From IMG/VR virus record IMGVR_UViG_3300042890_005556: a stretch of DNA of 64,000 bases. The stretch is one strand, 5' to 3'. Under the pieces are notes generated by a model, which saw only the letters and a program-made list of their open reading frames with translations, was not told the origin of the DNA and made no database searches. Every line of letters starts with the position of its first letter. The first letter of the stretch is position 1. This document shows positions 9,818 through 55,820 of this stretch, in pieces. The position numbers and the translations under genes were made by a program. The stretch is from a virus.

Positions 9818-9870
9818 AGTATTAATCCTTCGAGTTGATTCATTGTATTCTTCCATTGTATTTTATTTTC

Positions 9871-19854: not shown

Positions 19855-21639
19855 ATGCTAGAAATACAAAATGTAAGCTGGCGTAACTTTATGAGTTACG
19901 GCGAAGAAACATCGAGCCTAGACCTGTCAGAGCTAGGGCAGGTTTTAATAACAGGCGAAATCGAAGACGAAACACAAGACGGTTTAAAGAAAAGCAACGG
20001 ATCGGGAAAATCAACCATCCCAAACGTCATCCTATGGGCATTATTCGGGCGCACAATGCACTCGGCTAATCCAGGGGATGCCGTGATAAACCATTTCATT
20101 GGCAAAGACTGCTGGGTTAAAATAACGTTAAAGAACGGCGATAGTATAACCAGAACACGAGGATTAAAAGGCCACAACGAGCTACTCTATACAAAGAATG
20201 GCGAAGAAAACACGCTCAGCACAAATAAAAACTTACAGCAATTATTAAATAAAGACTTACAGTTAGACTGGGAGTTATTCACAAGCTCAGCGTTCTTCAC
20301 ACAATATAGCAAATCATGGCTAGAAATGGCAGACAATAACAGGAAGAAAGCACTAGAGCGAATCCTGAGGGTCGATAGGTTTACATTCTACGCTACAGCT
20401 GCAAAATCAAGCGCAGAAAAAGTCGACGCTAAGCTGTCAAAAATTAATATCAAAATCGAAAGCGCTAAAGCCAGAATCGCCAAGGCCACCACACAAATCG
20501 AAAGAAACACACAATTAAGAGATAATTTCGAAGGCAGCAAAACCGACAGAATACGATCAATACAAGCATCAGTAGACGTAAACCAGCAGAAAGCTGATGT
20601 TATAAAGATACCAGACTTGGATAAAATAACACAGATTTGGGAGGTCTACACCAGAATTAATGATAAGATAGAAGCGATGAAGAATGACCAGAACGACATT
20701 CTTCGCAAGACAAAGTTAGTTGAATCGACGATAAATGATTTAAAGTCCAAGGCAGCTTCGTGGAAAAACAAGAAAGGCAAGCAGTGCCTGTCTTGCATGC
20801 AAGACATAGATGAAAGCCACATTCAGCAGCACATTGAGCCATTGATTACCCAACAAGCGACAGAAGAAGCCACCTTGAATGGCCTATTAGCGGAAAAAAG
20901 CAAATTAACGCAAAATATATCAGCCACGGAATCTAAACTCGCTGAACGAAAGCCAAAGGTAACACTAAGAGAAGCAAAATCGATAATTGATGAAAAAAAT
21001 CAATTGCTAAAGTTAATAAACAGAGATCTAGAGCACATTACAAAGATAGAAAATGAGCAGAACCCGTACACGTCTAGCTTAGATGACTTAGAAAATTCGA
21101 TAATAGAAGACCAAACCATAATAATTGATTCAACACAAGAGAAAGAGCAACAAGAGTTACTGTATAGGCATTACACATATCTCAGTAAAGCATACTCAGA
21201 AAGAAATAAAATTAAAAGCTATGTTTTTAAAGAGCATATCCCTTTCATTAACCAGAGACTGAACCACTATTTGGACATGCTGAATCTGGATATTAAGGTC
21301 AATTTAACTGAAAATCTGGGTTTAGACAGCAACATGTGGGGTTATGATTTTCAGTCTGGTGGAGAGAGGAAACGCACGGACGTAGCATTTATGCTCGCTG
21401 CCTTTGACTTTCATGAGGCGATGTACGGTAGGCAGTGCAATGTTTTGGTCTTAGATGAGGTAGATGGTCGTATGGATGATGATGGTATAGACGGGCTTAT
21501 CGATATAATTAAGCAAGAATTATCAAGGAAGGCTGAAACGATCTTAATCATATCACATAGAAACCAAATGCATGATGTGTTTGATAAGGAAATTAAAGTG
21601 ACTAAGTCTAATAATTATTCCAAAATAAGGCAGATGTAA
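19855..21639 (+). CDS. Rad50/SbcC SMC-type ATPase (T4 gp46-like)
   Basis: RNFMSYG, Walker A NGSGKST, coiled coil with CLSC zinc hook, signature SGGERKR, Walker B VLDEVDGRMD, LIISH. Confidence 0.93.
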   Translation: MLEIQNVSWRNFMSYGEETSSLDLSELGQVLITGEIEDETQDGLKKSNGSGKSTIPNVILWALFGRTMHSANPGDAVINHFIGKDCWVKITLKNGDSITRTRGLKGHNELLYTKNGEENTLSTNKNLQQLLNKDLQLDWELFTSSAFFTQYSKSWLEMADNNRKKALERILRVDRFTFYATAAKSSAEKVDAKLSKINIKIESAKARIAKATTQIERNTQLRDNFEGSKTDRIRSIQASVDVNQQKADVIKIPDLDKITQIWEVYTRINDKIEAMKNDQNDILRKTKLVESTINDLKSKAASWKNKKGKQCLSCMQDIDESHIQQHIEPLITQQATEEATLNGLLAEKSKLTQNISATESKLAERKPKVTLREAKSIIDEKNQLLKLINRDLEHITKIENEQNPYTSSLDDLENSIIEDQTIIIDSTQEKEQQELLYRHYTYLSKAYSERNKIKSYVFKEHIPFINQRLNHYLDMLNLDIKVNLTENLGLDSNMWGYDFQSGGERKRTDVAFMLAAFDFHEAMYGRQCNVLVLDEVDGRMDDDGIDGLIDIIKQELSRKAETILIISHRNQMHDVFDKEIKVTKSNNYSKIRQM

Positions 21640-23183: not shown

Positions 23184-23248
23184 CCGGCTCTCCACCAAAC
23201 GGTAACTATAATTAGCGCCTATATTCTTTGCATACAAATGGGAATGAT

Positions 23249-25093
23249 ATGATAAACATAGAATCAGATCCAATTGACTTGGATACTATCCTCAAAGCTT
23301 TCAAAGAACTAGCCAGTAATATAAACATTAATGATGACAGACAAAAATTAGAAGATGATGTGGTAATATTATGTCAGACTTTCAGAGCTATAAAAGTAAC
23401 TGGTTATGAAGACGGTGTAAGAGAAGCTTATCAAGAAGTATGCGAAAAATTAGCAGACACGATATGTGATAGCCGATTCGATTTTGATAGACATTTCTGC
23501 TTTAAAATGCAAGAGTATGGTAATGTCTTCTCGAATCTCGTAGCATCATGCGACCTAAAAAACACAGACAAGTATATCGAAAGATTAAGAAATGACGATC
23601 AAAAACACAGCATTTACAAAAGACTGTTTCTAACATCGTCTAGAAACAAGCAGGAGTACATTAAAGAGGTAGCTGACCACTACCACACAGATATACCGCT
23701 ATACAACAATTGGGCGTCTAATTTATTCCAAATAATATCATGCGGCCTTCTGAATATGCACGTAAGAGATAATTTAATATTCTTAAGCAATTACATAATT
23801 GCAAACGAGTTCAAATGGGCTGCAGCAATCGGCGACGTGTATAACCATTCAGCATACACAGATAACCCATTAGAAAGACGATTAAAGGAACATATAAACG
23901 ACCAATGCAAAGAACTTTTTCATCCAGACTTTGTACCCATAAACAATAAGACTAAAAGAATAGGCATTTTTACAGAAAATTTTTTTCAAGGTCACAGCAC
24001 CCACAGGACAGTGGCGAAATACATTCATGCTTTGGCTGATAGATACGAATTAATATTGCTGCACGGTGAACGATACAGGGTATTACCGCTGAACGTTAAA
24101 TCCGATGAGAGAATATTCAAGGAAATTCATCAAATAAGCATTTTTGGGACTTACGATCCATTTGAAATGTCCATAGTTGGGCCACAGAATCTAAAGCTGG
24201 ACATATTGATATACCCAGACTGTGCATGCGACGCATTATCACTAATAATGGCAAATATGCGGCTTGCACCAGCGCAGATGGCTATGACAGGAATGCCCAC
24301 TAGCACATTTAATAGCGAAATAGATTACTTTATATCAGGCAGAGACGTAGAATGCCTTGAAAAAATCGATGACAATTATAACGAAAGAGTCGTTTGCTTG
24401 CCGGGTTTAGGGGCGATCCATACGAGACACACACCTATAAAAGAATTCACAAAGCCAGAACCCAAAGACGACATTCTAATTGGCGGCTCATGGGTATGCC
24501 CCAAAACGCACCACTTTATGGCTTCCGCATTAGGTGAAGCGCTTAACAGAGTGAATAAAAAATGCACATTGAGAGTGTTCGCAGGGCTAGCTTGGTTTAC
24601 AGCCAACAGAGTATACGTTCCATATATCGATGAACTTGGAAAATATTTCAACGACAACATCACTCTTAGTATTATTGAAGGTGCAGAAGGGCACAAATAT
24701 AACGACTTGATGGCAGAAGTAGATTTAGCTGTTGACAGTTACCCTTGGGGAGGTTCTAACACGGTCAGCGACTGTATCCAATTAAATAAACCAGTTGTAG
24801 TTTGGCAAGGCGACAAATGGTATAATAGAATCGGTCCAGCTATGTTAAGACGCATAGGTCTAGAGAGTCTAATAGCTAAAAACAGAACAGAATATATTGA
24901 TAAGACTATCAGATTAGTGGAAGATGATGCTTGGAGAATAGAGCTAAGCGAGCTGATTAGCGAGCATAACAAATCGGGACTTGTGGACTCCGAAATCTAC
25001 AATAGTCAGAAAGGTGTAGAAGCATTTTCTACATTTATAGATAACGTGATAAATGGTAACATACAACCAGGAAAAGAGCCGCTTTTATTGTGA
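23249..25093 (+). CDS. GT41 glycosyltransferase (HMW1C/N-glycosyltransferase or SPINDLY-like)
   Basis: IGIFTENFFQGHSTHR, LDILIYPD, MRLAPAQMAMTGMPTST...IDYFISG, DLAVDSYPWGGSNTVSDC, PVV...R.G..ML..IGL..LIA....YI. ATG 23249 preferred over TTG 23228. Confidence 0.85.
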   Translation: MINIESDPIDLDTILKAFKELASNININDDRQKLEDDVVILCQTFRAIKVTGYEDGVREAYQEVCEKLADTICDSRFDFDRHFCFKMQEYGNVFSNLVASCDLKNTDKYIERLRNDDQKHSIYKRLFLTSSRNKQEYIKEVADHYHTDIPLYNNWASNLFQIISCGLLNMHVRDNLIFLSNYIIANEFKWAAAIGDVYNHSAYTDNPLERRLKEHINDQCKELFHPDFVPINNKTKRIGIFTENFFQGHSTHRTVAKYIHALADRYELILLHGERYRVLPLNVKSDERIFKEIHQISIFGTYDPFEMSIVGPQNLKLDILIYPDCACDALSLIMANMRLAPAQMAMTGMPTSTFNSEIDYFISGRDVECLEKIDDNYNERVVCLPGLGAIHTRHTPIKEFTKPEPKDDILIGGSWVCPKTHHFMASALGEALNRVNKKCTLRVFAGLAWFTANRVYVPYIDELGKYFNDNITLSIIEGAEGHKYNDLMAEVDLAVDSYPWGGSNTVSDCIQLNKPVVVWQGDKWYNRIGPAMLRRIGLESLIAKNRTEYIDKTIRLVEDDAWRIELSELISEHNKSGLVDSEIYNSQKGVEAFSTFIDNVINGNIQPGKEPLLL

Positions 25094-28141: not shown

Positions 28142-28903
28142 ATGGCTCAGTATTGCGACACGAAGAAACTCGAAAAGGTCTGGTTTAACTGGCTTCTATC
28201 CAAATCAGCACCCACGCTGGAGCCATACAGGAAAGCGGGTGTGTTGTGGACTAAAGCCATAGGTCTCGTCGATGTGAAGGGTGAGGTGATTGTCAAAGGT
28301 GGTAAGACCTTTAAAAGTCCTACACATCCTATCAGATCGCACTGTATCTTGTCAAGATATCCGTTCTTCTTTACCACTTTTAATGGTAAGCCACAAGAAC
28401 TTGCGTCCCAAATACATTATAACGAAGATGGTGATTATACGACAACCCCCATTGCACTTTCAGAGATAGAAATAGTAAAAACCAAGCCGGAAATAAAAGA
28501 CATAGAACAAATACTACTAAAAGATGGCTACATCCTAGATGCAGAAACAGGAAAAAGCTGGGAGTCCATGTTAATAGACATCAATAAAATGTGCCTCGGA
28601 ATAGCATCTAAATTCCATCAAAAAACAGCAGAAGAATTGAATGATTTAGCTAACGAAGCATTATTGCAAGTAGCTAACAAATTATCTACGGATAGGCTGG
28701 TATATACTCCCGGAAGGGCACCAGTATTCAATTTATTAACCACCACTATACATCGATGCATGTTTTCAATTATGAATAAAAGGAAAAATCAAAGAGAAGG
28801 GCTTAACAGATTACTGCAGGACGCACAATCTGGGTCATTACCTCAAACTAACAGAAGCCTGAGACTCCAAACATTCACGACGAGAAAACATGAAAATCGT
28901 TAG
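28142..28903 (+). CDS. T4 gp55-like late sigma factor with internal insertion
   Basis: YCDTKKLEKVWFNW, INKMCLGIASKF, NDLANEALLQVANKL, YTPGRAPVFNLLTTTIHRCMFSIMNKRK parallel the gp55 region-2-only pattern; ATG 28142 follows AGGAG. Confidence 0.65.
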   Translation: MAQYCDTKKLEKVWFNWLLSKSAPTLEPYRKAGVLWTKAIGLVDVKGEVIVKGGKTFKSPTHPIRSHCILSRYPFFFTTFNGKPQELASQIHYNEDGDYTTTPIALSEIEIVKTKPEIKDIEQILLKDGYILDAETGKSWESMLIDINKMCLGIASKFHQKTAEELNDLANEALLQVANKLSTDRLVYTPGRAPVFNLLTTTIHRCMFSIMNKRKNQREGLNRLLQDAQSGSLPQTNRSLRLQTFTTRKHENR

Positions 28904-29831
28904 TAACAAACACATTGTGCCAGCAGTAACAAAAAAACCAATAGACAATATTAAAATAGTTGTTAGTCCCCATAATAAAACTATAAGCACACTAAATGCT
29001 TATAATCAATCAGCCCATATGAAAGTAATCCCAGCACAAATAGCACCGCAGATCAAAAACAAAGCAGTCATTGATAAAAGCCTAGTAAAAAGAACTCAAA
29101 ACCCAAATAAACCAAAACCACCAGCATCGGTAACTTACGCTTCCGGCGAAGCACCAATCGAAAGCATACCAAAAATATACGGTATAAAAGACATAGGTAA
29201 AGGTAAGACATTAGTAGTCATAGCAAACGGCCCAAGTATAAACGAAGTTGAATTGGAGAGGCTAAAAGACAAGCCAGGCATCGACACTCTATCAATAAAC
29301 AGACCGGACCCACGGGTCTGGCCAACCACATATTGGTCATTTTACGACCAATCACAGCTTGTGCGACACGAAGACCTGTATAATTATTATGAAGGCATAA
29401 CCTTTCTAAGCACAGCCATCAAGAGAGACAAGGCCAGAAGCATAAAGTTTAAAAATTTTGGCAAAAAGCAATTTAGCAGAGACTTAACAAAGGGATTATG
29501 TATAGGACGCACAAGCTGCTATGCTGCTATGCAACTTGCTTTATGGATGGATTACGATAAGATATTCTTTTTTGGGGTTGATATGCACCCAGATGGTATT
29601 GACGGCAAGCTCCATTTCTACGGGACAAATCCCGACGTAGACCCTGATATTAGGAAAAAACGATTTAACTCAGAAGCAGAATACTTCGAATTTGCCGCAG
29701 ATAACATGGAATACCAAGAGAGAAAGAGATTTCACTTTTGTTCGTCTTACCTGACATGGCCCTTTAAATCGCGTTTCAATTACTTAGATCACAAGACTGC
29801 TATAGACGTGATTTTAGGGTCAATGCTATGA
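28890..29831 (+). CDS. Maf/DUF115-type glycosyltransferase-like protein
   Basis: VVIANGPSI, TLSINR, PTTYW.FYD, TSCYAAMQLALWMDYDKIFFFGVDM, HFY. Confidence 0.7.
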   Translation: MKIVSNKHIVPAVTKKPIDNIKIVVSPHNKTISTLNAYNQSAHMKVIPAQIAPQIKNKAVIDKSLVKRTQNPNKPKPPASVTYASGEAPIESIPKIYGIKDIGKGKTLVVIANGPSINEVELERLKDKPGIDTLSINRPDPRVWPTTYWSFYDQSQLVRHEDLYNYYEGITFLSTAIKRDKARSIKFKNFGKKQFSRDLTKGLCIGRTSCYAAMQLALWMDYDKIFFFGVDMHPDGIDGKLHFYGTNPDVDPDIRKKRFNSEAEYFEFAADNMEYQERKRFHFCSSYLTWPFKSRFNYLDHKTAIDVILGSML

Positions 29832-30938: not shown

Positions 30939-31328
30939 ATGATACACGATCATCTAATGGAAGCAATCAGGCAAGATGCCGACCTATTGACTAAATCCGA
31001 TGCGTGGCTCGAAGAAGAGAAGAATTACTTCACAGAGCAGATGCGCAAATCCATAGAAGAGCTAAAACCCATCCTCTTAGCTATAGCTATAAAACAAAAA
31101 TTGCAGCAGCAGAACATGGTGCCTAGGCAGAAGTTCATAAGAGGCAGCACAGGCCAGATAGAGAATGTTGTGATTGACTTCTGTAAGCTACCAGAAGCAC
31201 TGAGAGATATGCTCAATAACGGCAGAGATACCTTAGATCAGTTGATAGCAGCTGGCAATATTGCCACATGGCAGATAGACGGGTATGACGTTAATACCTG
31301 CCTCCAAACGGCACCGAAAGGGATATAA
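30939..31328 (+). CDS. Hypothetical protein translationally coupled to purZ
   Basis: 129 aa; TAATG overlap with the purZ start. Confidence 0.7.
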   Translation: MIHDHLMEAIRQDADLLTKSDAWLEEEKNYFTEQMRKSIEELKPILLAIAIKQKLQQQNMVPRQKFIRGSTGQIENVVIDFCKLPEALRDMLNNGRDTLDQLIAAGNIATWQIDGYDVNTCLQTAPKGI

Positions 31329-32428
31329 TGCAAAACGGCAAGCTCAATATAGTCACAGACGGACAGCACGGTAGCACAGGCAAGGGTCTAATCAACGCAT
31401 ATCTAGCCGATAAACACCGACCAGAAATACTCAGCACGACCAATATGGCCAACGCTGGCCACACCGCAGTCAACGAAAACGGCGAACCGTTCATAGCAAA
31501 AGCATTACCGTCATCAGCGGTCCTAAACAAATGGCGAGAGGGCTATAAACCGACAGTATTCGTAGGAGCTTCATCTGCTTTTGATCTGCAACAGCTACTA
31601 AAAGAATGGGAAGAATGCGACAAGCCATTCACACTAATCCATCAAAGAGCGGGTGTCATTACACAAGAGCAAAAAGAAAGAGAATCCGGAGCATCAGGCA
31701 CAAAGCACGTTGCTAGCACCATGCAAGGATGTGGAGCATTTCTAGCAGATAAAGTCATGCGAAGAACAGATTTAAAACTCGCTAGAGATTATGAAGAGCT
31801 TCAACAATTCATGGCCATCAAAGAAGCACATACATGGCTAAAGGCACAGCTCGAAAGCTACGGTACAATTCTCCATGAAGGAAGCCAAGGATTCAGCTTG
31901 GATATAAGCCACGGTAGTCACTATCCAGAGTGTACAAGCCGCAGCACCACTGCTATTCAAAACCTTGCTGACCTTGGTCTTAACCACAAGCAAGTTGGTG
32001 ATGTGTACGTGGTTTTCCGGCCATACCCGATCAGAGTCGGCAATGTCTATGAAAATGGGGTAGAAGTAGGCAACAGTGGTGGTTGTTATGGCGACAACCA
32101 AGAGACTACTTGGGAAGCAATAGCCGATGCTGCAGGTGCACCGCCAGAGATTAAAGCCAAGGAGCTTACAACTGTCACAAAGCGACTTCGAAGGGTCTTC
32201 ACGTTTAGCATGCAGCAAATCACCGAAGCTGCTGCAGCTAACGGTGCATCATATCTTGCGCTGAATTTTGCTAACTATATTGACTGGACTTGCTATGGCA
32301 CCAACGACAAGGCAAAATTGTCAAGCAAGATTTGGGATTTCATTCATTCAGTACAAGAGCAAACAGGCGTCAAGGTGGGGCTTGTTGGTACGGGTCCTCA
32401 GATAAACCACGTAATTGACCTAAGATGA
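31328..32428 (+). CDS. purZ: PurZ, N6-succino-2-amino-2'-deoxyadenylate synthase (Z-base pathway; PurA paralog)
   Basis: DGQHGSTGKG (Ser where PurA has Asp in GDEGKG), NMANAGHT, EGSQGFSL, YPECTSR, RPYPIRVG, ELTTVTKRLRRVFTFS, and LNFANY in place of PurA TKLD; short 366-aa length as in phage PurZ. Confidence 0.85.
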   Translation: MQNGKLNIVTDGQHGSTGKGLINAYLADKHRPEILSTTNMANAGHTAVNENGEPFIAKALPSSAVLNKWREGYKPTVFVGASSAFDLQQLLKEWEECDKPFTLIHQRAGVITQEQKERESGASGTKHVASTMQGCGAFLADKVMRRTDLKLARDYEELQQFMAIKEAHTWLKAQLESYGTILHEGSQGFSLDISHGSHYPECTSRSTTAIQNLADLGLNHKQVGDVYVVFRPYPIRVGNVYENGVEVGNSGGCYGDNQETTWEAIADAAGAPPEIKAKELTTVTKRLRRVFTFSMQQITEAAAANGASYLALNFANYIDWTCYGTNDKAKLSSKIWDFIHSVQEQTGVKVGLVGTGPQINHVIDLR

Positions 32429-33204
32429 TCAACCTATTCAAAGTCGCAATTTACACAGACGAAGCGGGGTCTACCCTCGCTTCGTCTAAGAGTATTATAT
32501 CAGAATTAAATATTCCAAATGTCATTTTTAGAAACGTAGACAATAGGAATATTCTAAAATATGACGAAACTCGAATAAAGGCTGTCCTCAAAGAGTTCGA
32601 GGATTTTACCGTAGCTGGTCTGTCGACAGATATCAGAATAGATGATATGTTGTCAGATGATCAGATTTTCGATTTACGGAAGAAGATTTACCTTATTAAA
32701 CCAGTATTTGTCAGATTCGGGTGGGCTGGAGAGAAATACTCTACGGAATTTATTGCTAGAATAATAGATATGAGTATAGAGAGCAATTTTATACCGGTTA
32801 TTGAGTATGAGCATACGCATTTTAATTCTCCAAAAATCATAAAGGCACAGGACTGGGTCAACCTTTTGTCATTATCGAAGCGATTGAGAGTGAATTTTGA
32901 TCCTGTTCAGTATCTTATGCGGGTAAGAACTGATCCTATAGAGACGGTTTATGTTCCGCTTAGGAATCAAGTGAGCGTGATCGATGTAAGAGATTATAAG
33001 ATTGGCGTTGGGGCTAAGACGATTGGTTACGGGTCTATTGATTGGGCTGCGTTGTTAAAGAGACTATATTCCGATAAATATAACGGTTGGTTGGCTATTA
33101 AGCCGTCTCTGGGTATCATGCATGGTGATACTCTTGGTAGAGAGATGGTTTTTTCCCATGCTTTCAGCAATTTCAAAGAAACATTGGAGGAAGCGTGTCA
33201 ATAA
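32425..33204 (+). CDS. Xylose-isomerase-like (AP endonuclease 2 family) TIM barrel, divergent
   Basis: AIYTDE, VIEYE, VNFDPVQY, IDVRD, IGYGSIDWAALLKRLYSDKYNGWLAIKP; several metal ligands appear replaced; ATGA overlap with purZ. Confidence 0.7.
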   Translation: MINLFKVAIYTDEAGSTLASSKSIISELNIPNVIFRNVDNRNILKYDETRIKAVLKEFEDFTVAGLSTDIRIDDMLSDDQIFDLRKKIYLIKPVFVRFGWAGEKYSTEFIARIIDMSIESNFIPVIEYEHTHFNSPKIIKAQDWVNLLSLSKRLRVNFDPVQYLMRVRTDPIETVYVPLRNQVSVIDVRDYKIGVGAKTIGYGSIDWAALLKRLYSDKYNGWLAIKPSLGIMHGDTLGREMVFSHAFSNFKETLEEACQ

Positions 33205-33410
33205 ATCTTAATGAGACGACAGCTGCTATTAGAAAAGCTGGAGCCGTCAATGTTCGCGTTGTCCCTATGAAGGGGCAAACAATCGATGGTGAGCACCAAA
33301 TTGAGATTCAGAACGTGCCAGGGACTTGGCAGACTATTTTGACTGGTATTAAAAAACCTATGGCTGAGAGCATCGTGCGTGACGCCACAAACAGGGTATT
33401 GTTAGGATAA
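33195..33410 (+). CDS. Hypothetical protein
   Basis: GTG start after GGAGG; 71 aa. Confidence 0.7.
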   Translation: MSINLNETTAAIRKAGAVNVRVVPMKGQTIDGEHQIEIQNVPGTWQTILTGIKKPMAESIVRDATNRVLLG

Positions 33411-33414
33411 CCTA

Positions 33415-33837
33415 ATGGCTGGCTCAGACGTATTCGAAGTCGCACGCTACAAAATCGGAGATGTGGCGTGGTGGGTGAATTTAACAGCCAAGGATGACCC
33501 ACAAGAAGTCCCTGAAAAAGACGAATGGATGAAAAAGCATCATCCTAAGGTCTTATTCGAACGCGGTTTATACAAGTCCCTGTGGAAGACGACTGCTGCT
33601 TTGCCTAAATTAGAGAAGACGGATTTTCTCAGTATAATGCATATATTGACGTGTGAGATGAAAATAAGCGAATTCATTGTCTCAAGTATCGCAAGAAGCA
33701 ACGATACCGGCGAATTCTTTTATTCTAACTTAAACACCGAATGGCTTCCAGAGTCCAGCATGTTTGACACTAAAGAGGCAGCTGCGAAGGAAAGAAAAAG
33801 GATCATAGGGTTGGTGAAAAAATGGTGTGATTCTTAA
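33415..33837 (+). CDS. Hypothetical protein
   Basis: 140 aa; YKIGDVAW and FDTKEAA resemble common small phage proteins. Confidence 0.7.
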   Translation: MAGSDVFEVARYKIGDVAWWVNLTAKDDPQEVPEKDEWMKKHHPKVLFERGLYKSLWKTTAALPKLEKTDFLSIMHILTCEMKISEFIVSSIARSNDTGEFFYSNLNTEWLPESSMFDTKEAAAKERKRIIGLVKKWCDS

Positions 33838-33874: not shown

Positions 33875-36800
33875 ATGGCAACAGATCCGTTTGCGAATAT
33901 AGGTTTTAGGGAAAACTTCTCCCAAGCTTACTACACAGAAATAATTATAGCTAGGAATAAAAAAAGCATAAGATTTGCTTCTTCCACTCCTACAGTAACA
34001 AACAGCTACCGCCAACTGATGGGTGGTAATTTATACAGAGTAGCGGAGTTACTAAGTATAACAGGACCAAAACAGCCCGTAGCCATAGAAAATAAACTAC
34101 AATATAAAAAAGACCAGCCATACTCACTCTATGATCAAGGCCAAATAAGCGACGAATTCAGAATACAAAACGTCGACCCTACCCTCTCGTTAGAGAACAG
34201 AGAAAGCTATTGGGCAAGAGTGAGTAGCCCATTAGGGAGAGAGTGGGCTGCCTACTACGCTGGAACAGATGCTAAAATAGGCTACCTCGCAAACTTCATA
34301 GACAGAAACTTAGATGACTTCACAGGCACTAATTTTGCAGGATTTGTATCTGGAACACTTAATAATGATAACGATAAGCCCAACCTATATGACACTGTTA
34401 AGATAGGAAACATATTCGGCTCCACAGTTCAAGGTAGCCAAACTGCATCTGTGTCTGTTGAGCCAGGCATGTACAAGAGCTTCATCTCGTGCAAAGTCAC
34501 ACAAGACACGAGATATTTTGACCCTACAGGCGCAGAAATAATCCAAACTGCTGAATCAGGTGATTTATTCGCCGACGAGTTCGTGTTAAACTTTTATATA
34601 TTCCCAGGTTATCACACATTTTATTATGGCTCTTGGAAGATAACAATCGAGCCGACTAATACGACAGGAACGCATAGGGTATTCATCCAGCATGCCAGAT
34701 ACTATACCTCTGCTGAATACAATATGCAGCCAATTGTGAGGAAATTTAGTGCAGACTTTGATTGGGATGGGACTTTAAGCGAGTTTAATCTTATAACTAT
34801 TAAGTACCTGTTCACTCCAAGACCTCAGGGGAGTGCGTCGACTGGCACAATTAACATTGGTAATTCTACTAGTAAAGTTAGTCTATTTGTAAATGCTGTT
34901 CCTGTCTTCGCAAGTGGTAGTGATTCGATATGGCCCCCATCTTATCCAAAAGTCTACCGTGGTTCAAGCGGTGCGGGATTGCCTAGTTATACACAGAAAC
35001 CATATATTGACCTAAAGATGGCCCCAGATAACACGCCTGTCTTCATAGTATGGGATAATGCAGTACCTTTCGGGATCACAAAAAGCGAGTTTGCATTTAT
35101 TCTTATAACTGATAAGTTAGTGGATCTTAAAGGTCTTTATACTCACCTCATTAGATTCGAAAGGATAATGCCTAATCTCACAATTGAGACGACCCCTAAC
35201 CCAGTTGTTCCTCCAACACCCCCAGTAGGCGGTATTACTTCGAAATTTTACAACAGGGCTACTTATAGTCTTGCCCCAGCGGTCTTGATGGAATTAAACA
35301 AGATACTCTTAGATTTCATGTTGTCCCAGCCAAATATTAGGATCTCTAGCGGGCCACTTGAATCAGATCCAATTCTTAATAGAATGCTAGCCGCCGCAAG
35401 CACCACCAAAAAATATTCATCAGCGATAGAATCTGACAAGAACGTTTTAGATCTCTTAAGAGAGCCAGTCTTGGTAGTAGATGATACGAATTCACTTCTA
35501 CCATATATCTTGCTAGAATATGGACTGCCCAATGACAACGTCGGGCAACTACGAGTTAAAATAACAGAAATAAAATCACCAAATGTAATCGATGAAGTAT
35601 CATCAGAAATTGAGCTACAGGGCTACGCAGAGTATATTATTAAAACCATTACCACAGACAGCTGGACAGCTGGCACGGTGACGTTGTCTACGAATTTCAG
35701 ATTTTATGTCGATGATAGTGGAATGTACGAGCCAAAATTAGATCCGTATATCGTCAACAATCCTAATCAGCTGACTCTTAATGAGTTTGGACAAGTATAT
35801 GTTGAGAGTATGCGCGTTACTTGGGCTTTTCCAAGGGACGTGAACAGTCCTTTTGTTATTCCAGATAGCTTTTTTACTAGGTATAACAGGGTGGTGGATG
35901 TAGTAACCCAGGAAGTTGAAATAGCGAAGCTCTTTGATACGGAGAGAGACTTATTACCAAATGGGTTGCCGGTCGATCTAAATATGTCTAATAAGCCGGG
36001 CACGACCCCTCCAATACCACCTAACCCTGGAACAACTCCAACACTATATTATAATCGAGCTGAATGGAGTGTACAGCCTGCTAAGGAAGCGGAAATAGAA
36101 GAAGTCCTAAAACAATTCATGATTAGTAATCAAGTGATAACTAGCGCGGATTCGCGTTTTAGAAATATATTGAATACCGCTTTGTTGACTGATTATAGAG
36201 TGATCAGAACATTCGAAATGTCATTAGGGTTTGGAGAACAGATTCTTGATGTAGTTGATACACCTCTTGCTACTAGTAGTAATGAAGTTGAAATATTTTA
36301 TGCACCAACTGATTCAACTTTTGTTGATCATTCAAAAACTAGCGGGGTGCAATTACGCGCCAGAATACCAATAAATGACCCTAATAGAAATAATTCTCAA
36401 ATTGACCTATCTAGCACAGCTAAATTTACCTTCGACATACCAGCAAATTTCGACAGTCCATCTGGTGATCTGTCCGAATATGGTGCTGGGACCATTGAAA
36501 TATTCGTAGATTTTGTTTTGAGGCAGGCAGATGTTGCGAGACCGGATATCGGCAGTGCTAACCCTTATATCGTTGGGAATAACAACGAATTTATACTTAG
36601 CTCATCTTACAGATTGGGAGCGTTACGCGCTACTATTACTGCTGATATCGGTTTAGGTACTGATTTCATTGACGAGTTTGATATTAATTTAGAACCAATA
36701 AAACTCGATCAGTTCGGGGCTGGAACTTTAGTGGACATAACGCCTTTCATTACTGGTGGTGTTCCAGTTTCCATAAATATGTCAAATGCTCCAGGCACAG

Positions 36801-39800
36801 TCGGAATTGGTGTGCCAGGTGGTACACCATTACCGCCATCTGGTGGGTCATTATCACCATCCAAGAATTATACCGCAACATTCACCCTGGCAGACCAGCC
36901 ATTTAAAATATTCGAGATAGACAATTTAAAAGGGCTGTTAAATTTTTACAGTTTCCAAGACACTCTAAACTACACATTATATGATCTTCTTCTAACCCCA
37001 TATTCTCAGAAAGTACCCATTTCGAGATACGCGTCTGACGTTTTCAAGCTAGCCCTAATCGAACAGGGTAAGATACCTGGACACCCATCAGATCAGACTG
37101 CAGGATTTTTAAAAGCGTATACTGCCTATTTTAATGACCAGGATTGTGTGCTACCGGAAGGCAGTCCGCTAGACCCCTCTTGCCAGGCATTGACCATTGA
37201 ATATATCATAGCACCTAAAGAGACGAATAAGGTATTAACATTAGGCACAAATCTCCTGAAAATGGGCATGGTTATTAATCTAGGGTGTAATGGTGGTGCC
37301 AATTGCGTTGTTGTTAGCGGCAAACAGATTCCTAGAGTGAATGGTGTGCCTACGGCCCAGTTAAGTTATGATTTTACCATGGAGATGATAGTAACAGAAG
37401 ACACATCAGGTGTGACGCCACCGACGAGTCCAAGTATAATCGTGACATATAATCTTTCAGGGCCCATAGCGCTCTGGGGTTTTTTAATAGGACAATACTC
37501 TCTTATTAATGTTTCTAGATACACTGGTGGTGCATACAATAAAGTCATAGCGTATGATGAAGCGACTATGAAATCAGGCACAAATTTTCTAGTAAAAGCT
37601 TTCGGCACCGATTCACCACTATATGAAGCCGGTAACATAGCGCCAATTAAATTGTCTGCTAGAGGGAAGAGGCTTTGGGGTTCCGATCCGGACGATTTTA
37701 CTAATGACTACACACAAATCGACTTTTTTGTGACAGCTTACATAGACACAAGATTTACAAAAACACTAACTGGCTCGTTAATTAGTGACCTAGATGCTCC
37801 CAATACAACACGAGCAGCAATAGTTTATGTGATAGAGCCTGTAACCGTACCATTTCCAAGATTCGACGGCACGATAGTTCCCTCTAAAAAATTACCAACA
37901 GTTACCTATACTGATTACACTAATGTATTAATGACCAAGCGTTTTCCCTCTGACGGCGGAGACGGCGGAGACGGCGGAGACGGCGGAGATACGACGGTCA
38001 AGAAGTACAACGGTAAATGGAATTTGGGTCCAGATTTCATTAGAGCTATAGAAAACACATACATCGAATTTCTGCAAGTACCCACATTTAATTGGCGACT
38101 TGACAATGTGGCGTCAAAGGGCTTAGGAAGCTATGATAAGCTTTTGTGGGAATTAGTAAGTGGAGGTGTCAATCCAATCGTCAATAACTGGCAGACTGCC
38201 GGATACCCAACTGGAGTTGGTCTGCAAAGACCAATAGACTCTAGATCCGTCCAATATTGGATGGAAGACGTATTAAAATACAACGGCGTCGGAACCGGAC
38301 CGACCGGAGCACCAGTCACACTAGCTTACTCATCCAGCTTCCAAGGATCTAATTTAAAATTAACAGTTTATATGAATATAGCAGTTAGAGACATAAGATT
38401 AGAAGCTGAAAAGTCAACTAGTGTAACATTGGACATCTCTAACATAATAGGCGAGTTGTCTGAAGGTGGAATAAATAAAACCTATCTGTTTGCGAATAGA
38501 AGTACTTCATTTACCATATTAGTAGACGTATACGAAGCGATGCAAACATTCAGTGCTCCGCAAGAAATGATGCTCGCACAGACAGTTCCCGACAGTTACA
38601 TCTGGCAGCCACCCAAATACATTATAGTAAACAGTGACAGCCTCAAATACAATGATGGCCTAAACGACGTATACTACTTCAGAGACGGCTACCAAACCGC
38701 TCTAAGACAGACCTACTCATTCGTTGGCACAAGAACATCACAAAACGACGTAATAGCAACATATAGGCACGGCGATGCCAGCTCATACGACCCAGAAACT
38801 ACAAACTACGACGTAGTGGTTGGCGGCTTCGACTTGGTATACCATAAAGGCACACCCAACACTCTAACTTTACTACCGATCGAAATAATAGAGTCTAAAA
38901 CCAAAAAGAAATTTGTGTGCTTTGGCAGCATCAGAGAAGTAGGAAATATATTAAACGCCTCAATAAAATCAAACGTTGTGATGACATTCATAACAGATAA
39001 CGGATCGACATCCGACACAGACGGAGCATACTGGGTATACGACAATACCTGGAAAGAGTGGTCACATACAATTCCGATCAATACCGGCGATGAGCTAAAC
39101 TTATACTGCTACAGCTGTCTCACTAATCAGGTTGGTACGCTAGAAACCAACATCAATATAATCACCAAATTCAACGTTAAACCAACTCCCAATAACCCAC
39201 CGCCATCAGTAGATCCCACCGAAATATTCCCAGCAGAATTTTCTTACGACCAATTAATCCAAAAAGTACCGGCACTACCAGTTGTATACCCCCCAGGCTT
39301 CCCAAATCCATCAGTATATCGGTTTGAATACCCTAAAACGATGGCAGTAAAGGCCAAAAGCTCAACAGATACATATGAGTTCTTTCTAGAATCTATTGAC
39401 AGCACACAACGCATTGCTACTTATAAGCTGTATGAATTCGTGAACAACGAACTGACGGTAGGTGGTTTTACTGTAGAATACACACCACACGTATCATTCA
39501 AGCTAAGTAAAGTAGACGTGTACTCAGCAGATTTAGATAGAGATTTTGAATGCTTTGGAGTAATACACATAATCTATGACAATGACGGTGCATTATTGTC
39601 GGCTGATACGTGGGAAATAATACCCACATTTGAAGACCCTAATGATTTCGCTAACTGGTATTTGACTGTCGTACAAGACCCGTTGACTGGTGGTAACCAT
39701 TTTAACACTTATTGCAACGATGGCACAAATTTTAAATGCTCAGCAAATAACTTGAAATTCGTGATGCGTATAGACGCGAATTTTAAGCATTATGCTCCAG

Positions 39801-42800
39801 AACCTCCAGCAATCATTGTCGCTCCACCCGTATCAGGTCCGCCAATACCATTGCCCATATACAGCACCGGTTATAACGTTGCTTCAGACAGGCAGATTGC
39901 ATTCATTGGTGAGCCTGATAGTAACTGGAAAATCACCAGTTTTATTACGGGTCCAGAAACTGCTCCTACACATTATTGGAAACTAAATAATGGCTTAACT
40001 GATAGTGTGGGTGACTTACCATTTGTAGCACATCCAGCTATGAGAGTTGAACAGGGACAAAGCCGACCGCGATTCGCACGCATCGCAGATTTCACCTACG
40101 GGGTGGGTGCTGTTTGGTCGAATATACAGACGCAAACGACTCCTGAGAATGCTATTTATCCTAATAATCCTGGAGTAGTCAGTGGCAGTACTACTATAGG
40201 AAAAGGCATAGAACACGGTTTATATGCTTATGTGGCTTCACAGACCTCAAACCGAATTTTGGATTCAAATGCTTGGACGATAACTGGATGGCTAAAAATG
40301 CCTATTAAACCATATGTCGCCAATATAGACAATGCTGGCGGCATATTAGAAGAAATGGTATTTAGTATTTCCCCATTCACACCTTTGCCACTTCAGCCCC
40401 CATCAGTAACCAGTTCATATGTCTTTGGTCCTGAACTCATTGTCGGTAGTGCCCCTAGGATATCAGTTTATGTGATCTACGCTTTTAGAGACTCAACACC
40501 TGCTGAGGTGTATGGTGAAAGATTCTTTAAGAAAGCCGGCCATATTTATGTTTATTTTAAATCAACCCGCACCAGCGAACCGACTTACGCAGGAAAAGAG
40601 ACTGGGCTGAATGCAGTATTAGTAGATGAGGCTGGTGACATCATCTATAGGGATTTATTAACAGGAGACATAGCGTCTGAAGAGGGTACTACATCAAGAG
40701 CCTGTAATTTCCTTGAAATACCTGGACCAGATCTAATAAGAGCGAATGTCTGGTCATTTATATCAATAAAAAAACAAGAAGCATTTGATGACAGGCTGAT
40801 AATAAGTATAAATGGCCGAGATTACACAGCGATATTTCAGTCTGCCATCGTCACAGATGAGCTGTTAAAGAAAGTTAATTTCATCCAGGCAATGGCCCCG
40901 CTAGACGATTTAAGAACATACGACTCAGAGCTCTCAGACTTAGAATTAAAACTGATATCGCGAGTCGGTAGCGCAGAAGGCGGGGTAGTACCACGAGAAT
41001 ACAGCCCCGGTGGAGTGGTATCAGGGGTCATATCAAGCCAAGTTTTTGCTTACGACCACTTTAACCCTTCAGAAGAGATCCAGCCATACTGGTGGCCAGC
41101 CGGATATACCTCTGGTAGCACCATCGTGCCAGATCGCACAAACCTCTACCAACAATACAATGCAAGATGGGTGTCGCCACCGCCTAAGCTGGGCATTGAC
41201 GCATCACCAGTAGCAAAATCCTTCCATTACGCCACCGAATTTGATCTTACAGGTATTACTCTCAATACAGTCAAGATATCGTTTCTATGCTCTGGTGACG
41301 ATAGAATAGTTGATATAATTGTTAACGGCACGAGCACAGGCTATAACAACATCTCAGAGATCGGCGGGCTGCCAGCTACTAATACGACAGCATATGACAA
41401 CTTAAGGTACAGGAACCTATGGGACGTGAAGCTACCGACCGGTAGTGGCCATCTCTTCGTTCAAACAATTAATACGATCGATATAGTGGTAGAAAACCAA
41501 GCTATCACAGATCTTTCAGTGGCTACTAACCCAACTGGGTTATACGTGTACGTTTACGAGAAGACCGGTGTTCCATTACCCATACTGGAAGACCCAAGAG
41601 CAATCATTTTAGACATAGTCGATACTGGCCACAATAAGATATTGAATCAACCAATACCTATAGGTTCGTCAGATAGCAATTGGGTGATAGAAAAAGTAGA
41701 AAGATCAGAAACCGCTCCTTCTCACTATTGGAAGTTTAATAATAGCCTAAATGATCTTGCTCCAGCTGTTGGCTCAACACCATTACCATTTGCGCAATAC
41801 CTGGTACAGTCTACTTTTAAAGCTGGTGTGGTAGTCGGTAATGCTGGAAATCCGCAAAACACCGGGGTAGTTCAGAACGCAGTATTTCCTTTTATTCCTG
41901 GTTCACCAACTTCTGAATATGGCAAGCACATCCTTGTTATATCTGAAGGAGGTACAAATAGTAAGCTCATTAATTCATCAGTAGGCTGGACGATTACCGG
42001 CTGGATTAAAATTCCATTATACGATGGATCAATACCGTCACTCGCGGAATTAACAACAATATCTGCTATTTCTCTTGACGTCTTTGCTGCTAACACGCCT
42101 ACCATGAAGTTTAAGTTTTGTTACTTTGGTGCTGGCAATAGAAAAACAGGAGCTCTCTATTTAGACTTTACTTATGGCGAATTGGATAGTAACAGAGCTA
42201 TGACAATACCTGACCAATCCACCAACTTCATCGAGATAATACCGAATCAAGGGGCGTTCTCTCAGAACGAATGGGTTTTCTTTTCAATACGCAGAACTCC
42301 ACGGACTACCGCTCCTTCTGGAGCTATATCTGATGGCACAATAATATTAACAATCAACGGTATTGATTACACTATTAAAGAACCATATATCCCAGGAGCC
42401 AGCTCGACTTTCGACACTATGAGCTGGATTGATTTTAGTTGCCCGGCAGATGATCTAAGAATATACGGAAATAAGGTACTGTCTAACTCTGAACTTAAAT
42501 TCATTTCCAAATACGATTTCACATCAATTATACCCGGTGAAAATGACCACGCCACTGCGGAAGGTGTACCGAGAGAATACTTGAACACATACATTACCGC
42601 GCCTTCCCCCGTCTTCGCCTACGATTACGTAAACCAATACAGCCCAGCACAACCATACTGGTGGCCACAAGCAGTTCCCAACCAAGCCTCACTCTACGGA
42701 GAATACAAAGCACGATGGGTATCGCCACCATCAACCACAGGCATTAACATAAGCAGATTAGAAAACACAGGATTCCACTACTATAAAACAACATTCAACC

Positions 42801-47674: not shown

Positions 47675-48240
47675 TATTCGGAACGTGTAATGTCCAATAT
47701 GATGGTAGAGCTACGAGCACACTTATTGATGGGAAGTACCTCATCATCATTAAGAGTGATGGTAGCCTCATAATTCATGATAGTAAGATGCTAAAGCCTA
47801 AGAACTATATAGGCCCAAAGGCTAGAATCTCTATGGTCGGCAATCAGATTATTGCTGAGTGTAAGAAGGAGAAGATTATTATAAATCTGTTAGAAGCTGA
47901 AAGCTTGCATTTAGCTGGCTGGGAAAATAAGAATATTGAGTTGACACGAACTGAGTTTGAGTTGCGTGATAAGCTCACTGAGAATATTGAATGGTACTTG
48001 GGCGTTGTGCCGGTTAAGGTGGAGAAGGAGTTTAAGACGAAGTATGGTGTTATTGATCTTTTGGTGGTGGATGATTGTGAGGTTACGCATATTATTGAGG
48101 TGAAGAGGGATAAGGCTTCTGTTTCTGCTTGTTCTCAGCTTTATAGGTATTATCAGAATCTAGGTGCTGCTAGGGTGATGGGTTATATTGCTTCGCCTAG
48201 GATCACTGAAAGTGCTATGATGTTTTTGGAGGAGTATGGG

Positions 48241-49944
<1,704 letters not shown>

Positions 49945-50333: not shown

Positions 50334-51281
50334 TCAAAATAAGACATCGTCCTTGGCTGCTGGCCACTTTCCGTTCGCTGTGGAAAAGAAATGGCTGTTT
50401 TCGAACCATCTAACTTTGATGGTTTGATAAAAAGATGTATAGGAAATGGCAAATCCGTTCTTGTGTTGGATAATTGACGGATACGAGCCATATGAGTCAA
50501 GCCCCGCAAAATGCAAGTAATTTTTAGAACCAGTGAAGACACCGACGGAAAGGTCTTTACGTCGTATCCCAGTGGTATTGTTGTAAACGTACAGAAGACA
50601 ATTCATATAATAAAGAACAGCAATGCTGCTATTATTATTAGGAATGCTTGTGTTGCTGGACACATTACCAGCATGTAGTTTACTGTACAGATTACTAGAT
50701 TTAAAATTTCGTGTTAAAGCGTTGATCTCACCATCATACCAAATAGCCGGCTGGATCTCGCAAGATCCAAAACGCTTGGATTCAGAGTAGTCAAAGCCAT
50801 TGCCAGTGTACAGAACACACTCTCCAGAAAACTCATCATACAGCGGCAAAATCGTCTTGCCGTCGTGCGTTATTGGTGAGCACCTGCCAAGAAGATGAAG
50901 CTGACTATCTGCAATTTTAACCGGTTCAGAGCATTTTAGAGAGTCAGTATCTTCTATCTTTCTGACGAATAGATCACAGAAAGCCCATTTCATAACAGGT
51001 CTGGTAATGAACGGATGGGCCACGAACTTAGAGTACAAGATATAACAATCACCTAGCGAATCTTTATACAATACTGGATTACCAGTACCATCTTCAAATT
51101 CGACGCTGGCTTTGTCGTTTGTTAAAATTACTCTTTGATTGTCTGAGCATTCATATTCACATGTATAGAAGGCGACTAGAAGTTTATCATCTATCGAAAG
51201 CAATGTTGAGCAATGATTAAATACTTCACAGCTGTATAAGCTTGTGGTTTCACCTAAAATATACTTTAGAGATTTTCTCAT
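50334..51281 (-). CDS. BNR/sialidase-like beta-propeller
   Basis: HCSTLL...LLVAFY..E, GNPVLY, ILPLYDE, IQPAI, IPNNNSSI, R..LSV, SYPSIIQ...ISYT follow the exo-alpha-sialidase (BNR_2) pattern. Confidence 0.7.
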   Translation of the reverse strand: MRKSLKYILGETTSLYSCEVFNHCSTLLSIDDKLLVAFYTCEYECSDNQRVILTNDKASVEFEDGTGNPVLYKDSLGDCYILYSKFVAHPFITRPVMKWAFCDLFVRKIEDTDSLKCSEPVKIADSQLHLLGRCSPITHDGKTILPLYDEFSGECVLYTGNGFDYSESKRFGSCEIQPAIWYDGEINALTRNFKSSNLYSKLHAGNVSSNTSIPNNNSSIAVLYYMNCLLYVYNNTTGIRRKDLSVGVFTGSKNYLHFAGLDSYGSYPSIIQHKNGFAISYTSFYQTIKVRWFENSHFFSTANGKWPAAKDDVLF

Positions 51282-54478: not shown

Positions 54479-55288
54479 ATGGGCAAACTGGTACAGCCAA
54501 AAGTCTACCACGTTGGGTACACAGAAGTAGACACAGATACCATACTAGAATATCTTAAAGATAGCGGGAATCTAGACTTCTATGAAAGCATCAAAGAAGC
54601 CAAAGCGATTGGAATAAGTAACGCAGAAGTACTTTGCAGCCTCTACGCTAAACTCTGTTATAAGAGCCTTACATTAGGGCAAAACCAAAACATAACAAGA
54701 GTGAGAGACATCAAAGACAACCTCATAGGTTGTTTTCATACAGGTCACGGAAGCATATTCGAGCATATTAACTTTAATTTTATAATCACAGATTGTAGCA
54801 GAATATTCACACACGAATTGATAAGACATAGGCCAGGTATGGCTTATTCACAAAATAGCGGGCGATATATTAGAATAGACGAAATTGATATAGTATTTGA
54901 TCCAATCTTAGAGCCAGTAAAAGACGACGTAGAAGAAATAATCGAATATCTAGAACACAAGTACAGAATAATGGAGCAAAAGCTAGACTTGAATAATATC
55001 AAGGACTTTGCTACTAAAAAAGAAATGACATCCGCATTACGAAGACTTGCACCAAATGGTCAATCTAACGAAATAGGGGTTACAGCAAACCTCAGATCCC
55101 TCCGCCATATTATCATGCTTAGGACCAGCAGGCATGCTGAATGGGAGATAAGAGTAATATTCGAACAGATCTATAACATAATGAAGAGCAAATACCCGTT
55201 GATGTTTGCTGACGCGAAAGAAGAGATCGTTAAGGGAATCATAGAAGTCACCGGAATGAGGATGCAGCCTTATGAAAATAGTATTTGA
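54479..55288 (+). CDS. thyX: FAD-dependent thymidylate synthase
   Basis: GHGSIFEH, SRIFTHELIRHR...SQNSGRY, N.RSL.H..MLR...AEWEIR. Confidence 0.95.
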   Translation: MGKLVQPKVYHVGYTEVDTDTILEYLKDSGNLDFYESIKEAKAIGISNAEVLCSLYAKLCYKSLTLGQNQNITRVRDIKDNLIGCFHTGHGSIFEHINFNFIITDCSRIFTHELIRHRPGMAYSQNSGRYIRIDEIDIVFDPILEPVKDDVEEIIEYLEHKYRIMEQKLDLNNIKDFATKKEMTSALRRLAPNGQSNEIGVTANLRSLRHIIMLRTSRHAEWEIRVIFEQIYNIMKSKYPLMFADAKEEIVKGIIEVTGMRMQPYENSI

Positions 55289-55820
55289 ACGCCTACCAAG
55301 AAACAACAACCCAATACCGAGCTACGCGACGCAAGGGAGCGCAGCTTTTGATCTAAGCACATGCCTTAGAAGATCCTGCAGACAATTTCTGGCAGGAAGG
55401 GGTACTATCAATTTCAGATGTACTACAGACGGCGGAAGGCGTGATAGCGATGAAGAAGGCAACTTAAGAGAGATAGGAAATTGTGATATCCCGGTGTTAA
55501 GGATTAACCCAGGTGAAATAATTCTAATACCGACTGGATTCAAGACCTCTTTCGTAAACGCCGTATTGAAGATATTTGTGAGATCTTCAATCAGCTTGGA
55601 TGGTCTTCAGCTAGCCAATAATGTCGGTATCATAGATTCAGACTATAGGGGTGAATTGTTCTTAGCATTTAAGAATACCAGTGATAAAGTGAAAAACATA
55701 TCTGATAACTACAGGATGGCACAAGGTATTCTTGAACCGCTTGAACAGTGCATCATAGAAGAAGGTACCGTCGACATTACTGTCAGAGGTGCTGGTGGGT
55801 TTGGTTCCACTAACGAATAA
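55272..55820 (+). CDS. dut: Trimeric dUTPase
   Basis: GSAAFDL, RSS, GIIDSDYRGE, RMAQG, RGAGGFGST (motifs 1-5). Confidence 0.93.
   Translation: MKIVFERLPRNNNPIPSYATQGSAAFDLSTCLRRSCRQFLAGRGTINFRCTTDGGRRDSDEEGNLREIGNCDIPVLRINPGEIILIPTGFKTSFVNAVLKIFVRSSISLDGLQLANNVGIIDSDYRGELFLAFKNTSDKVKNISDNYRMAQGILEPLEQCIIEEGTVDITVRGAGGFGSTNE

Follow-up and report, generated by a model that had tools for sequence, protein, structure and literature searches.

A divergent PurZ-clade synthetase in a conserved operon of an uncultured giant-phage lineage

The stretch of viral DNA analyzed here (IMG/VR virus record IMGVR_UViG_3300042890_005556; 64,000 nucleotides, hereafter the window) carries an intact gene, purZ, for a homologue of the succino-amino-deoxyadenylate synthase PurZ, the enzyme associated with phage DNA that contains 2-aminoadenine (Z). 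The protein belongs to the PurZ clade and has an ATP-type nucleotide site, but forms a branch of its own, and its gene lies in an operon that is conserved among relatives with very large genomes. From this gene content, Z-DNA in giant phages is likely.

The open reading frame (ORF) listing gave a single ORF with an ATG start exactly at the purZ position (Table 1). One nucleotide is common to its start codon and the stop codon of the preceding ORF (TAATG), and its stop codon overlaps the start of the next gene (ATGA). These overlaps with both neighbors indicate a tightly coupled operon. Met1 and the N-terminus are kept in homologues, so the start is considered correct. The translation contains DGQHGSTGKG at residues 11–20 and LNFANY at residues 312–317; both signatures named in the first-pass annotation of this DNA are therefore present. 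In agreement with them, the protein matched Pfam PF00709 (E = 2.9e-29) and PHROG 1211, “2-aminooxy adenylosuccinate synthetase” (E = 3.8e-61). In the PDB, it matched P. horikoshii PurA (1.3e-41), S-2L PurZ (7odx, 1.1e-40), and phiVC8 PurZ (6fko, 1.3e-40). The family assignment is far beyond chance, and the gene is intact.

The active site was compared in an alignment of 253 sequences, including E. coli PurA and the enzymes of Vibrio phage phiVC8, cyanophage S-2L, Ghobes, and Wayne. Asp13 of PurA is replaced by Ser16 in window PurZ, within the P-loop HGSTGKG. Of the 253 sequences, 249 have Ser at this position, three are gapped, and one, E. coli PurA, has Asp; all characterized PurZ and PurZ0 enzymes likewise have Ser. 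The catalytic and substrate-binding residues of PurA (N38, H41, T129, R143, Q224, T239, V273, and R305) are all retained, as N42, H45, T131, R145, Q187, T203, V237, and R288 of window PurZ. The guanine-binding segment K331-L-D333-V of PurA is replaced by F314-A-N-Y317, which is invariant in 120/120 clade members; the same nucleotide site reads F295-C-N-Y298 in phiVC8 and F-A-Q-Y in S-2L. A study that enriched DNA containing deoxy-Z (dZ) from aquatic viromes listed the positions that discriminate best between PurZ and PurA and gave F295 and Y298 as ATP contacts in PurZ (bioRxiv 10.1101/2025.10.22.683976). Window PurZ has T262, P233, Y244, W252, F295, and Y298 as T281, P234, Y254, W262, F314, and Y317, respectively, and these are invariant in the 120 close homologues. 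S273 of phiVC8 corresponds to T292, with Thr as in S-2L, and G256 of phiVC8 to Ala266. PurZ0 enzymes retain Asp333, followed by Gln. Asp333 of PurA binds guanine, and we take PurZ0 to be of the GTP type for this reason. Because PurZ0 retains this Asp and the preprint calls F295/Y298 ATP contacts, PurZ was taken as the ATP type; a different order of the two types that appears in the literature conflicts with both points. The Asp-to-Ser change and the NFxNY motif, by which the first-pass annotation had set PurZ apart from PurA, are thus both observed, as Ser16 and N-F-A-N-Y, with an ATP-type site that is distinct from PurZ0.

Two trees were built, a quick one with 109 rows and a careful one with 36 rows, both rooted on E. 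coli PurA and the GDEGKG-type protein of LR756503. The trees agree. The Ser-type proteins formed one clade (100/100). PurZ0 was a separate clade (98/96). Window PurZ fell within a 99/98 clade that includes the characterized PurZ of S-2L, Salmonella phage PMBT28, Acinetobacter, phiVC8, and ZP6. Here, 12 rows including window PurZ made up a distinct 100/100 sub-clade, with the branch of characterized enzymes as its sister (84/93). The phylogeny with PurA, PurZ, and PurZ0 is in line with the first-pass class assignment, as the protein lies inside the PurZ clade and apart from PurZ0.

The order of the genes around purZ (MptE/WaaZ-like, NDT-like, 239-residue protein, 129-residue protein, PurZ, 259-residue TIM barrel, 71- and 140-residue proteins, giant ORF) is retained in 17 of 18 related loci, with PurZ identity down to 54%. 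The profile of the NDT-like protein matched first the CMP (cytidine monophosphate) N-glycosidase 4jen in the PDB (1e-6), and then BlsM and MilB, which are nucleotide N-glycosidases. Y9, E80, P72, and the motif W38-T-x-H41-G42 are invariant or nearly so, with Y9 and E80 strictly invariant, and E57 is a possible third catalytic residue. With this protein as query, tblastn at E 0.01 found no match among the records of the phage collection. Alignment with Ghobes DmtZ by hhalign gave E = 4e-4, with the WTxHG motif in common. DmtZ of PurZ0 phages is a hydrolase/transferase acting on deoxyadenosine monophosphate (dAMP), with catalytic Tyr6, Asn77, and Glu103, Asp12 for the 6-amino group, and a specificity for 5′-monophosphates (PMC12884076). 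A second group has tied NDT enzymes to dZ contigs (preprint). The NDT-like protein is thus a candidate dAMP hydrolase, analogous to DmtZ.

The next protein downstream has the fold of DERA/DeoC. The PDB matches of its AlphaFold2 model in Foldseek, among those listed (ranks 1–49), were all deoxyribose-5-phosphate aldolases (E = 4e-11, TM-score 0.71). Its successor, the 129-residue protein, gave zero family matches in the Pfam, PHROG, and NCBIfam profile libraries. Beyond purZ, the model of the 259-residue barrel (predicted local distance difference test, pLDDT, 89.5) was closest to the isomerase Art22, the L-xylulose-5-phosphate 3-epimerase UlaE, and ketose 3-epimerases (E = 6e-11), which suggests a sugar(-phosphate) epimerase- or isomerase-like protein. 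The Pfam name AP_endonuc_2 had raised an Endo IV-type nuclease as a candidate for this barrel; it was ruled out, as the fold matches are sugar-phosphate epimerases/isomerases. The MptE/WaaZ-like protein, encoded upstream of the NDT-like gene, gave just faint sialyltransferase matches in the PDB. It is probably a glycosyltransferase, and its link to PurZ is uncertain.

The size of the phage was assessed through its relatives. A large protein collection contained at least 120 clusters at 55–96% identity to window PurZ, and metagenomic contigs with homologues reached 408, 321, 310, and 225 kb (228–408 kb for the large relatives). IMG/VR contributed 13 related loci, one of them on a genome of 355,825 bp that has direct terminal repeats and is rated complete. 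Membership in a widespread uncultured lineage of ~230–410 kb genomes is well supported through these relatives. Earlier wording had called the background jumbo and T4-like. The former holds for the relatives, whereas the window itself spans only 64 kb and its 96%-identical contig only 96 kb. The latter holds in part. A Gp23-type capsid protein was found in four of five relatives (1e-78), at 37% identity to a 595-kb uncultured phage and 26–29% to cultured myoviruses, and the window has gp46- and gp47-like genes. In contrast, no PolB replicase was found in any of the five relatives searched, and all five have a DNA polymerase III alpha subunit (DnaE) split over two ORFs. Against 5.9 expected occurrences, the T4 late promoter TATAAATA is seen twice in the window, and just 2 of 39 window genes have TAAATA upstream; T4 late promoters were therefore rejected as a feature of the window. 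The lineage is only distantly T4-like, through its T4-type capsid and recombination genes.

In a phage collection of 50,697 records, megablast with 20 kb of the window gave zero near matches. In IMG/VR, an exact 41-mer of purZ had no occurrence. PurZ matched 201 records, all less than 60% identical, the closest being Bacillus phage vB_BpsS-140 (39.7%). The PurZ- or PurZ0-bearing records among those listed measure 38–83 kb, so the first-pass remark that known Z-phages are much smaller holds in this collection. The sole huge record matched was LR756503 (735 kb), with a synthetase of the canonical GDEGKG PurA type (L041:5995-7194). Both PurA-type and PurZ-type genes thus occur in giant phages.

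Homologues were also found in cellular genomes, with 58 loci among the 185,579 species genomes scanned. The scan used a narrower alignment, as the first, broad alignment was too diverse for it. The closest cellular homologues, at 39–40% identity, lie on the chromosome of Sorangium sp. So ce131 (L053:6001-7113) and in Chondromyces apiculatus (L052), whose genomes also hold a normal PurA. In 27 loci of gut metagenome-assembled genomes (MAGs), the PurZ-like synthetase gene immediately follows a MutT-like NUDIX gene, and in ~10 loci the two are fused (e.g., L056:5539-7110, L055:525-962); these loci may be chromosomal or prophage-borne. This coupling would fit a feed from deoxynucleoside triphosphate (dNTP) to monophosphate and would argue against a plain housekeeping PurA role. 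In seven small bacterial MAGs (several of 0.9–1.5 Mb), the Ser-type protein is the sole PF00709 match. Some homologues of 750–1,200 residues (P0122, P0123, and P0135) carry one or two LAGLIDADG inteins. Inteins tend to sit in important genes.

In the mechanism we propose, window PurZ would condense deoxyguanosine monophosphate (dGMP) with aspartate, using ATP, to N6-succino-2-amino-2′-deoxyadenylate. Host PurB would then make deoxy-Z monophosphate (dZMP), one relative having a PurB-like lyase of its own, and kinases would make the triphosphate (dZTP), from which the split DnaE-type replicase would put Z opposite T in phage DNA. Exclusion of adenine, if any, would most likely be due to the operon around purZ. 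As an N-glycosidase of (deoxy)nucleoside monophosphates, the NDT-like protein would cleave dAMP to adenine and deoxyribose-5-phosphate, the reaction of DmtZ in PurZ0 phages, and this pentose phosphate would be the substrate of the DERA-fold protein and the epimerase-like barrel. Gene integrity, residue pattern, clade placement, synteny, and folds are observed; the substrate of PurZ, the incorporation of Z and its extent, and the roles of the neighboring genes are inferred. That PurZ is active and that Z enters the phage DNA we regard as fairly probable. The wider proposal is tentative: a globally distributed, fully Z-substituted lineage of 230–410 kb phages with a DnaE replicase, where a new route of dAMP N-glycosidase, together with a DERA-derived and an epimerase-like protein for disposal or recycling of deoxyribose-5-phosphate, replaces DatZ, MazZ, and DpoZ, is possible but rather doubtful.

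A dUTPase family member was present in all five relatives and a NUDIX gene in three of them. The dUTPase-family gene of the window scored 87.7 bits with the dut models, below the cut-off, and is 32% identical to Ghobes DutZ (E = 2e-12). It is a candidate dNTP pyrophosphatase and possibly only a normal dUTPase. The PurB-like lyase of the one relative (IMGVR_UViG_3300020204_000009, L051:1291-2337 (-)) is truncated, with 349 residues and 275 bits for TIGR00928 versus a cut-off of 326; no such lyase was found in the complete 356-kb relative.

Several observations weigh against an active PurZ within a complete Z pathway. The canonical Z cluster (PurZ with DatZ and MazZ/DUF550, with or without DpoZ) was found neither in the window nor in the five relatives. 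In tblastn searches of the window, DatZ, MazZ, and DpoZ of S-2L and phiVC8 gave nothing below E 1, and neither DatZ (S-2L protein as query) nor MazG was matched in the five relatives, including the complete 356-kb genome. A search for DUF550 (PF04447) carries no weight, since the control genomes gave no match. Four of the five relatives have only a weakly PolA-like ORF of ~400 residues (L026:1465-2643 (-), with equivalents in L023-L025); its match to family A polymerases (34.7 bits) is confined to their C-terminal palm region, and in the complete genome it lies ~8 kb from purZ. One generic HD protein was present in one of the five relatives, and the window has no counterpart of either the PolA-like or the HD ORF. 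The operon proteins also deviate at key positions. Among the NDT-like proteins, D15, which corresponds to Asp12 of DmtZ, varies, and N16 is invariant. In the DERA-fold protein, the Schiff-base lysine (K167) seems to be replaced by arginine, with K137, K167, and K201 (E. coli numbering) mapping to R127, the invariant R157, and K191, respectively. This mapping follows strand order only, because E. coli DeoC gave no significant hhalign match and the central part of the MAFFT-add alignment could not be relied on.

The same holds for PurZ itself. F12 of phiVC8 corresponds to His14, and 88 of the 120 clade members have Trp here, as in PurA. The NCBIfam PurZ model NF038379 was the best-scoring model for window PurZ, with 234.2 bits, but this is below its cut-off of 300; the relatives scored 222 bits, and the characterized PurZ and PurZ0 enzymes tested all scored above the cut-off (313–418 bits). 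The archaeal PurA model NF003295 reached 212 bits, just 22 below the PurZ model, and neither tree includes short archaeal PurA. The score below the cut-off indicates a new, uncharacterized branch of the PurZ clade, outside the curated family as now bounded. The first-pass label “ATP-type PurZ” is thus borne out by residues and phylogeny, with the qualification that the protein represents such a branch.

The sequence similarity to PurA raises the possibility of an ATP-using adenylosuccinate synthetase-like enzyme that acts on inosine monophosphate (IMP) or another 6-oxopurine nucleotide, as an auxiliary purine-salvage gene that boosts adenine nucleotides. The near-equal scores of the archaeal PurA and PurZ models (212 vs 234) fit this explanation, as does the alignment of the C-terminal 88 residues of window PurZ with P. 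horikoshii PurA. Huge phages do carry canonical PurA, LR756503 being an example, and the Ser-type protein is the only PF00709 match in the seven small-genome MAGs, although MAG incompleteness weakens this “only copy” argument. However, the catalytic base Asp13 is Ser in every member, the PurZ-versus-PurA residues T281, P234, Y254, W262, F314, and Y317 are present, the protein lies inside the 99/98 PurZ clade, and the MAG homologues are tied to a MutT-like NUDIX gene, which points to deoxynucleotide chemistry. We consider an IMP-type function improbable. PurZ function is favored because of Ser16, the PurZ residues, the 99/98 clade, NF038379 as best model, and the adjoining NDT-like gene.

With PurZ function accepted, the use of Z could still be limited. 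The genome could be partly substituted, with both A and Z, or Z nucleotides could mainly perturb nucleotide pools or defenses, as no efficient enzyme that clears deoxyadenosine triphosphate (dATP) and no Z-selective polymerase would be at hand. The missing matches to DatZ, MazZ, and DpoZ in the window and the complete relative agree with this, as do a DnaE-type replicase that need not be Z-selective and possible pyrophosphatases that are just generic dUTPase and NUDIX genes. Against this stand the NMP-glycosidase-like gene beside purZ, which gives a removal route, and the PurZ0 phages, which also lack DatZ and use DutZ and DmtZ (PMC12884076). In addition, S-2L replaces A completely although its polymerase is not selective, provided that dATP is cleared (PMC8342488). 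Such limited use appears unlikely to us. A third explanation makes Z just an intermediate, from which PurZ, the operon, and the MptE/WaaZ-like gene would produce an altered deoxynucleotide or a purine with further modification. In 17 of 18 loci, purZ is syntenic with two TIM barrels of the sugar-phosphate type and with a putative glycosyltransferase, glycosyltransferases abound in the window, and DmtZ-type enzymes can move deoxyribose-5-phosphate between bases (PMC12884076). Yet synteny in a conserved core region is no proof of a common pathway, no base-modifying enzyme class was recognized in the operon, and the DERA-fold protein seems to be without the aldolase lysine. We judge such further modification to be very improbable.

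The positions of purZ, its operon, and other features of the window are collected in Table 1.

Table 1. Features of the window discussed in the text (aa, amino acid residues).
Feature	Position	Strand	Basis or remark
SbcD/gp47-like gene	1290-2378		PHROG
Two large adjoining RCC1-repeat proteins	5723-7924 and 7967-9856	-	
gp46/SbcC-like recombination nuclease subunit	19855..21639	+	PHROG 77 at 1e-77, PHROG 100 at 1e-40 (values for the gp46 and gp47 genes together)
MptE/WaaZ-like protein, 313 aa, GNGPS motif	28890..29831	+	Weak matches to PF01973 and TIGR04437; 17/18 loci
NDT-superfamily protein, 128 aa	29841..30227	+	PF05014 E 6e-6, below cut-off; 17/18 loci
DERA/DeoC-fold TIM barrel, 239 aa	30209..30928	+	AlphaFold2 model, pLDDT 85; Foldseek
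Conserved 129-aa protein, translationally coupled to PurZ	30939..31328	+	Orthologues in 13/18 loci
purZ, PurZ-clade succino-amino-deoxyadenylate synthase homologue, ATP type, 366 aa	31328..32428	+	Family matches, residues, trees
Xylose-isomerase-like TIM barrel, 259 aa, overlaps the purZ stop	32425..33204	+	PF01261 E 6e-7, just below cut-off; 17/18 loci
Two small conserved ORFs (71 and 140 aa) after the module	33195..33837	+	17/18 loci
ORF of 4,599 aa after the purZ operon	33875-47674	+	
NucS/EndoMS-like mismatch endonuclease	47659-48294	+	PF01939 and PF21003; kept in relatives; just after the giant ORF
ThyX (269 aa) and overlapping dUTPase-family gene (182 aa)	54479..55820	+	TIGR02170 thyX 105.6 bits, above cut-off; PHROG matches
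Sugar-handling genes	23228-25093, 50334-51281, 52864-53841, 56993-57769, 60450-61562, 62767-63483		

At the site of the giant ORF, the relatives have ORFs of 999–2,988 residues, one of them with a VWA domain. An 886-bp gap free of ORFs (9857-10742) lies next to the pair of RCC1-repeat genes. The sugar-handling genes comprise a GT41-like gene, a BNR/sialidase-like gene, a nucleotide-sugar epimerase, an HPAT-like arabinosyltransferase, and two further glycosyltransferases. The window also encodes a ligase and PhoH besides ThyX, and many glycosyltransferases.

Literature searches that linked PurZ, aminoadenine, or diaminopurine with jumbo, huge, or megaphages found no relevant paper. To our knowledge, chemical proof of Z-DNA is limited to small phages (~38–83 kb) with a compact helper set. 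If the lineage indeed uses Z, Z:T DNA can be replicated over hundreds of kilobases by a bacterial-type Pol III alpha enzyme, and the exclusion of adenine evolved at least three times with different enzymes. A sizeable share of environmental giant-phage DNA may then be chemically non-canonical, with consequences for restriction, CRISPR, and enzyme-based library preparation, and the neighboring operon enzymes would be new tools for making Z-DNA. If fully Z-substituted, these genomes would exceed all Z-genomes demonstrated to date several-fold in size.

Among the known systems, P. horikoshii PurA (2D7U/5K7X; NF003295) is the best PDB match by E-value and resembles window PurZ in length and in its C-terminal region. 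In contrast to window PurZ, archaeal PurA has GDEGKG and the guanine motif TMLDK, and is without the SG-CY-D insert region that S-2L and window PurZ have in common; this stretch aligns with S-2L PurZ and is skipped in the alignment to the P. horikoshii enzyme. The homologue of vB_BpsS-140 (55 kb) is Ser-type, with the P-loop GSEGKG, and aligns with window PurZ over its full length. It is uncharacterized, comes from a small genome of siphovirus size, and joins the PurZ clade near its base, outside the sub-clade of window PurZ. The homologues from gut Clostridia, Bacilli, and Saccharibacteria MAGs, 34–37% identical to window PurZ, are Ser-type (GSCGKG) with an ATP-type LNFAQY, and are coupled to MutT-like NUDIX instead of the NDT/DERA-fold/epimerase-like set.

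Like the window, the PurZ0 systems combine a Ser-type synthetase not with DatZ but with a dUTPase-family gene and an enzyme of the NDT family. DmtZ and the window NDT protein have the catalytic Tyr and Glu and WTxHG in common, although the similarity is remote and the DmtZ Asp12 equivalent is not conserved. The synthetases themselves are only 26–29% identical, differ in the nucleotide site (F-A-N-Y here versus Asp333-Gln), and fall into separate clades. Compared with the classical Z-phages, the window phage has no adjoining MazZ/DatZ and no DpoZ or PrimPol context, and its lineage has genomes ~5–9 times larger, with a DnaE replicase. Window PurZ is just 33–35% identical to the characterized PurZ enzymes, from which it is separated as a 100/100 sub-clade; it has His14 instead of Phe/Tyr and retains a PurA-like C-terminus. 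Nevertheless, PurZ of phiVC8 (6FKO/6FM1), S-2L (7ODX), PMBT28, and the Acinetobacter SH-Ab 15497-like phages share with it the Ser at the Asp13 position, T262, P233, Y244, W252, and the F295/Y298 pocket, and all of these enzymes have the same fold and length and belong to the same major clade (99/98).

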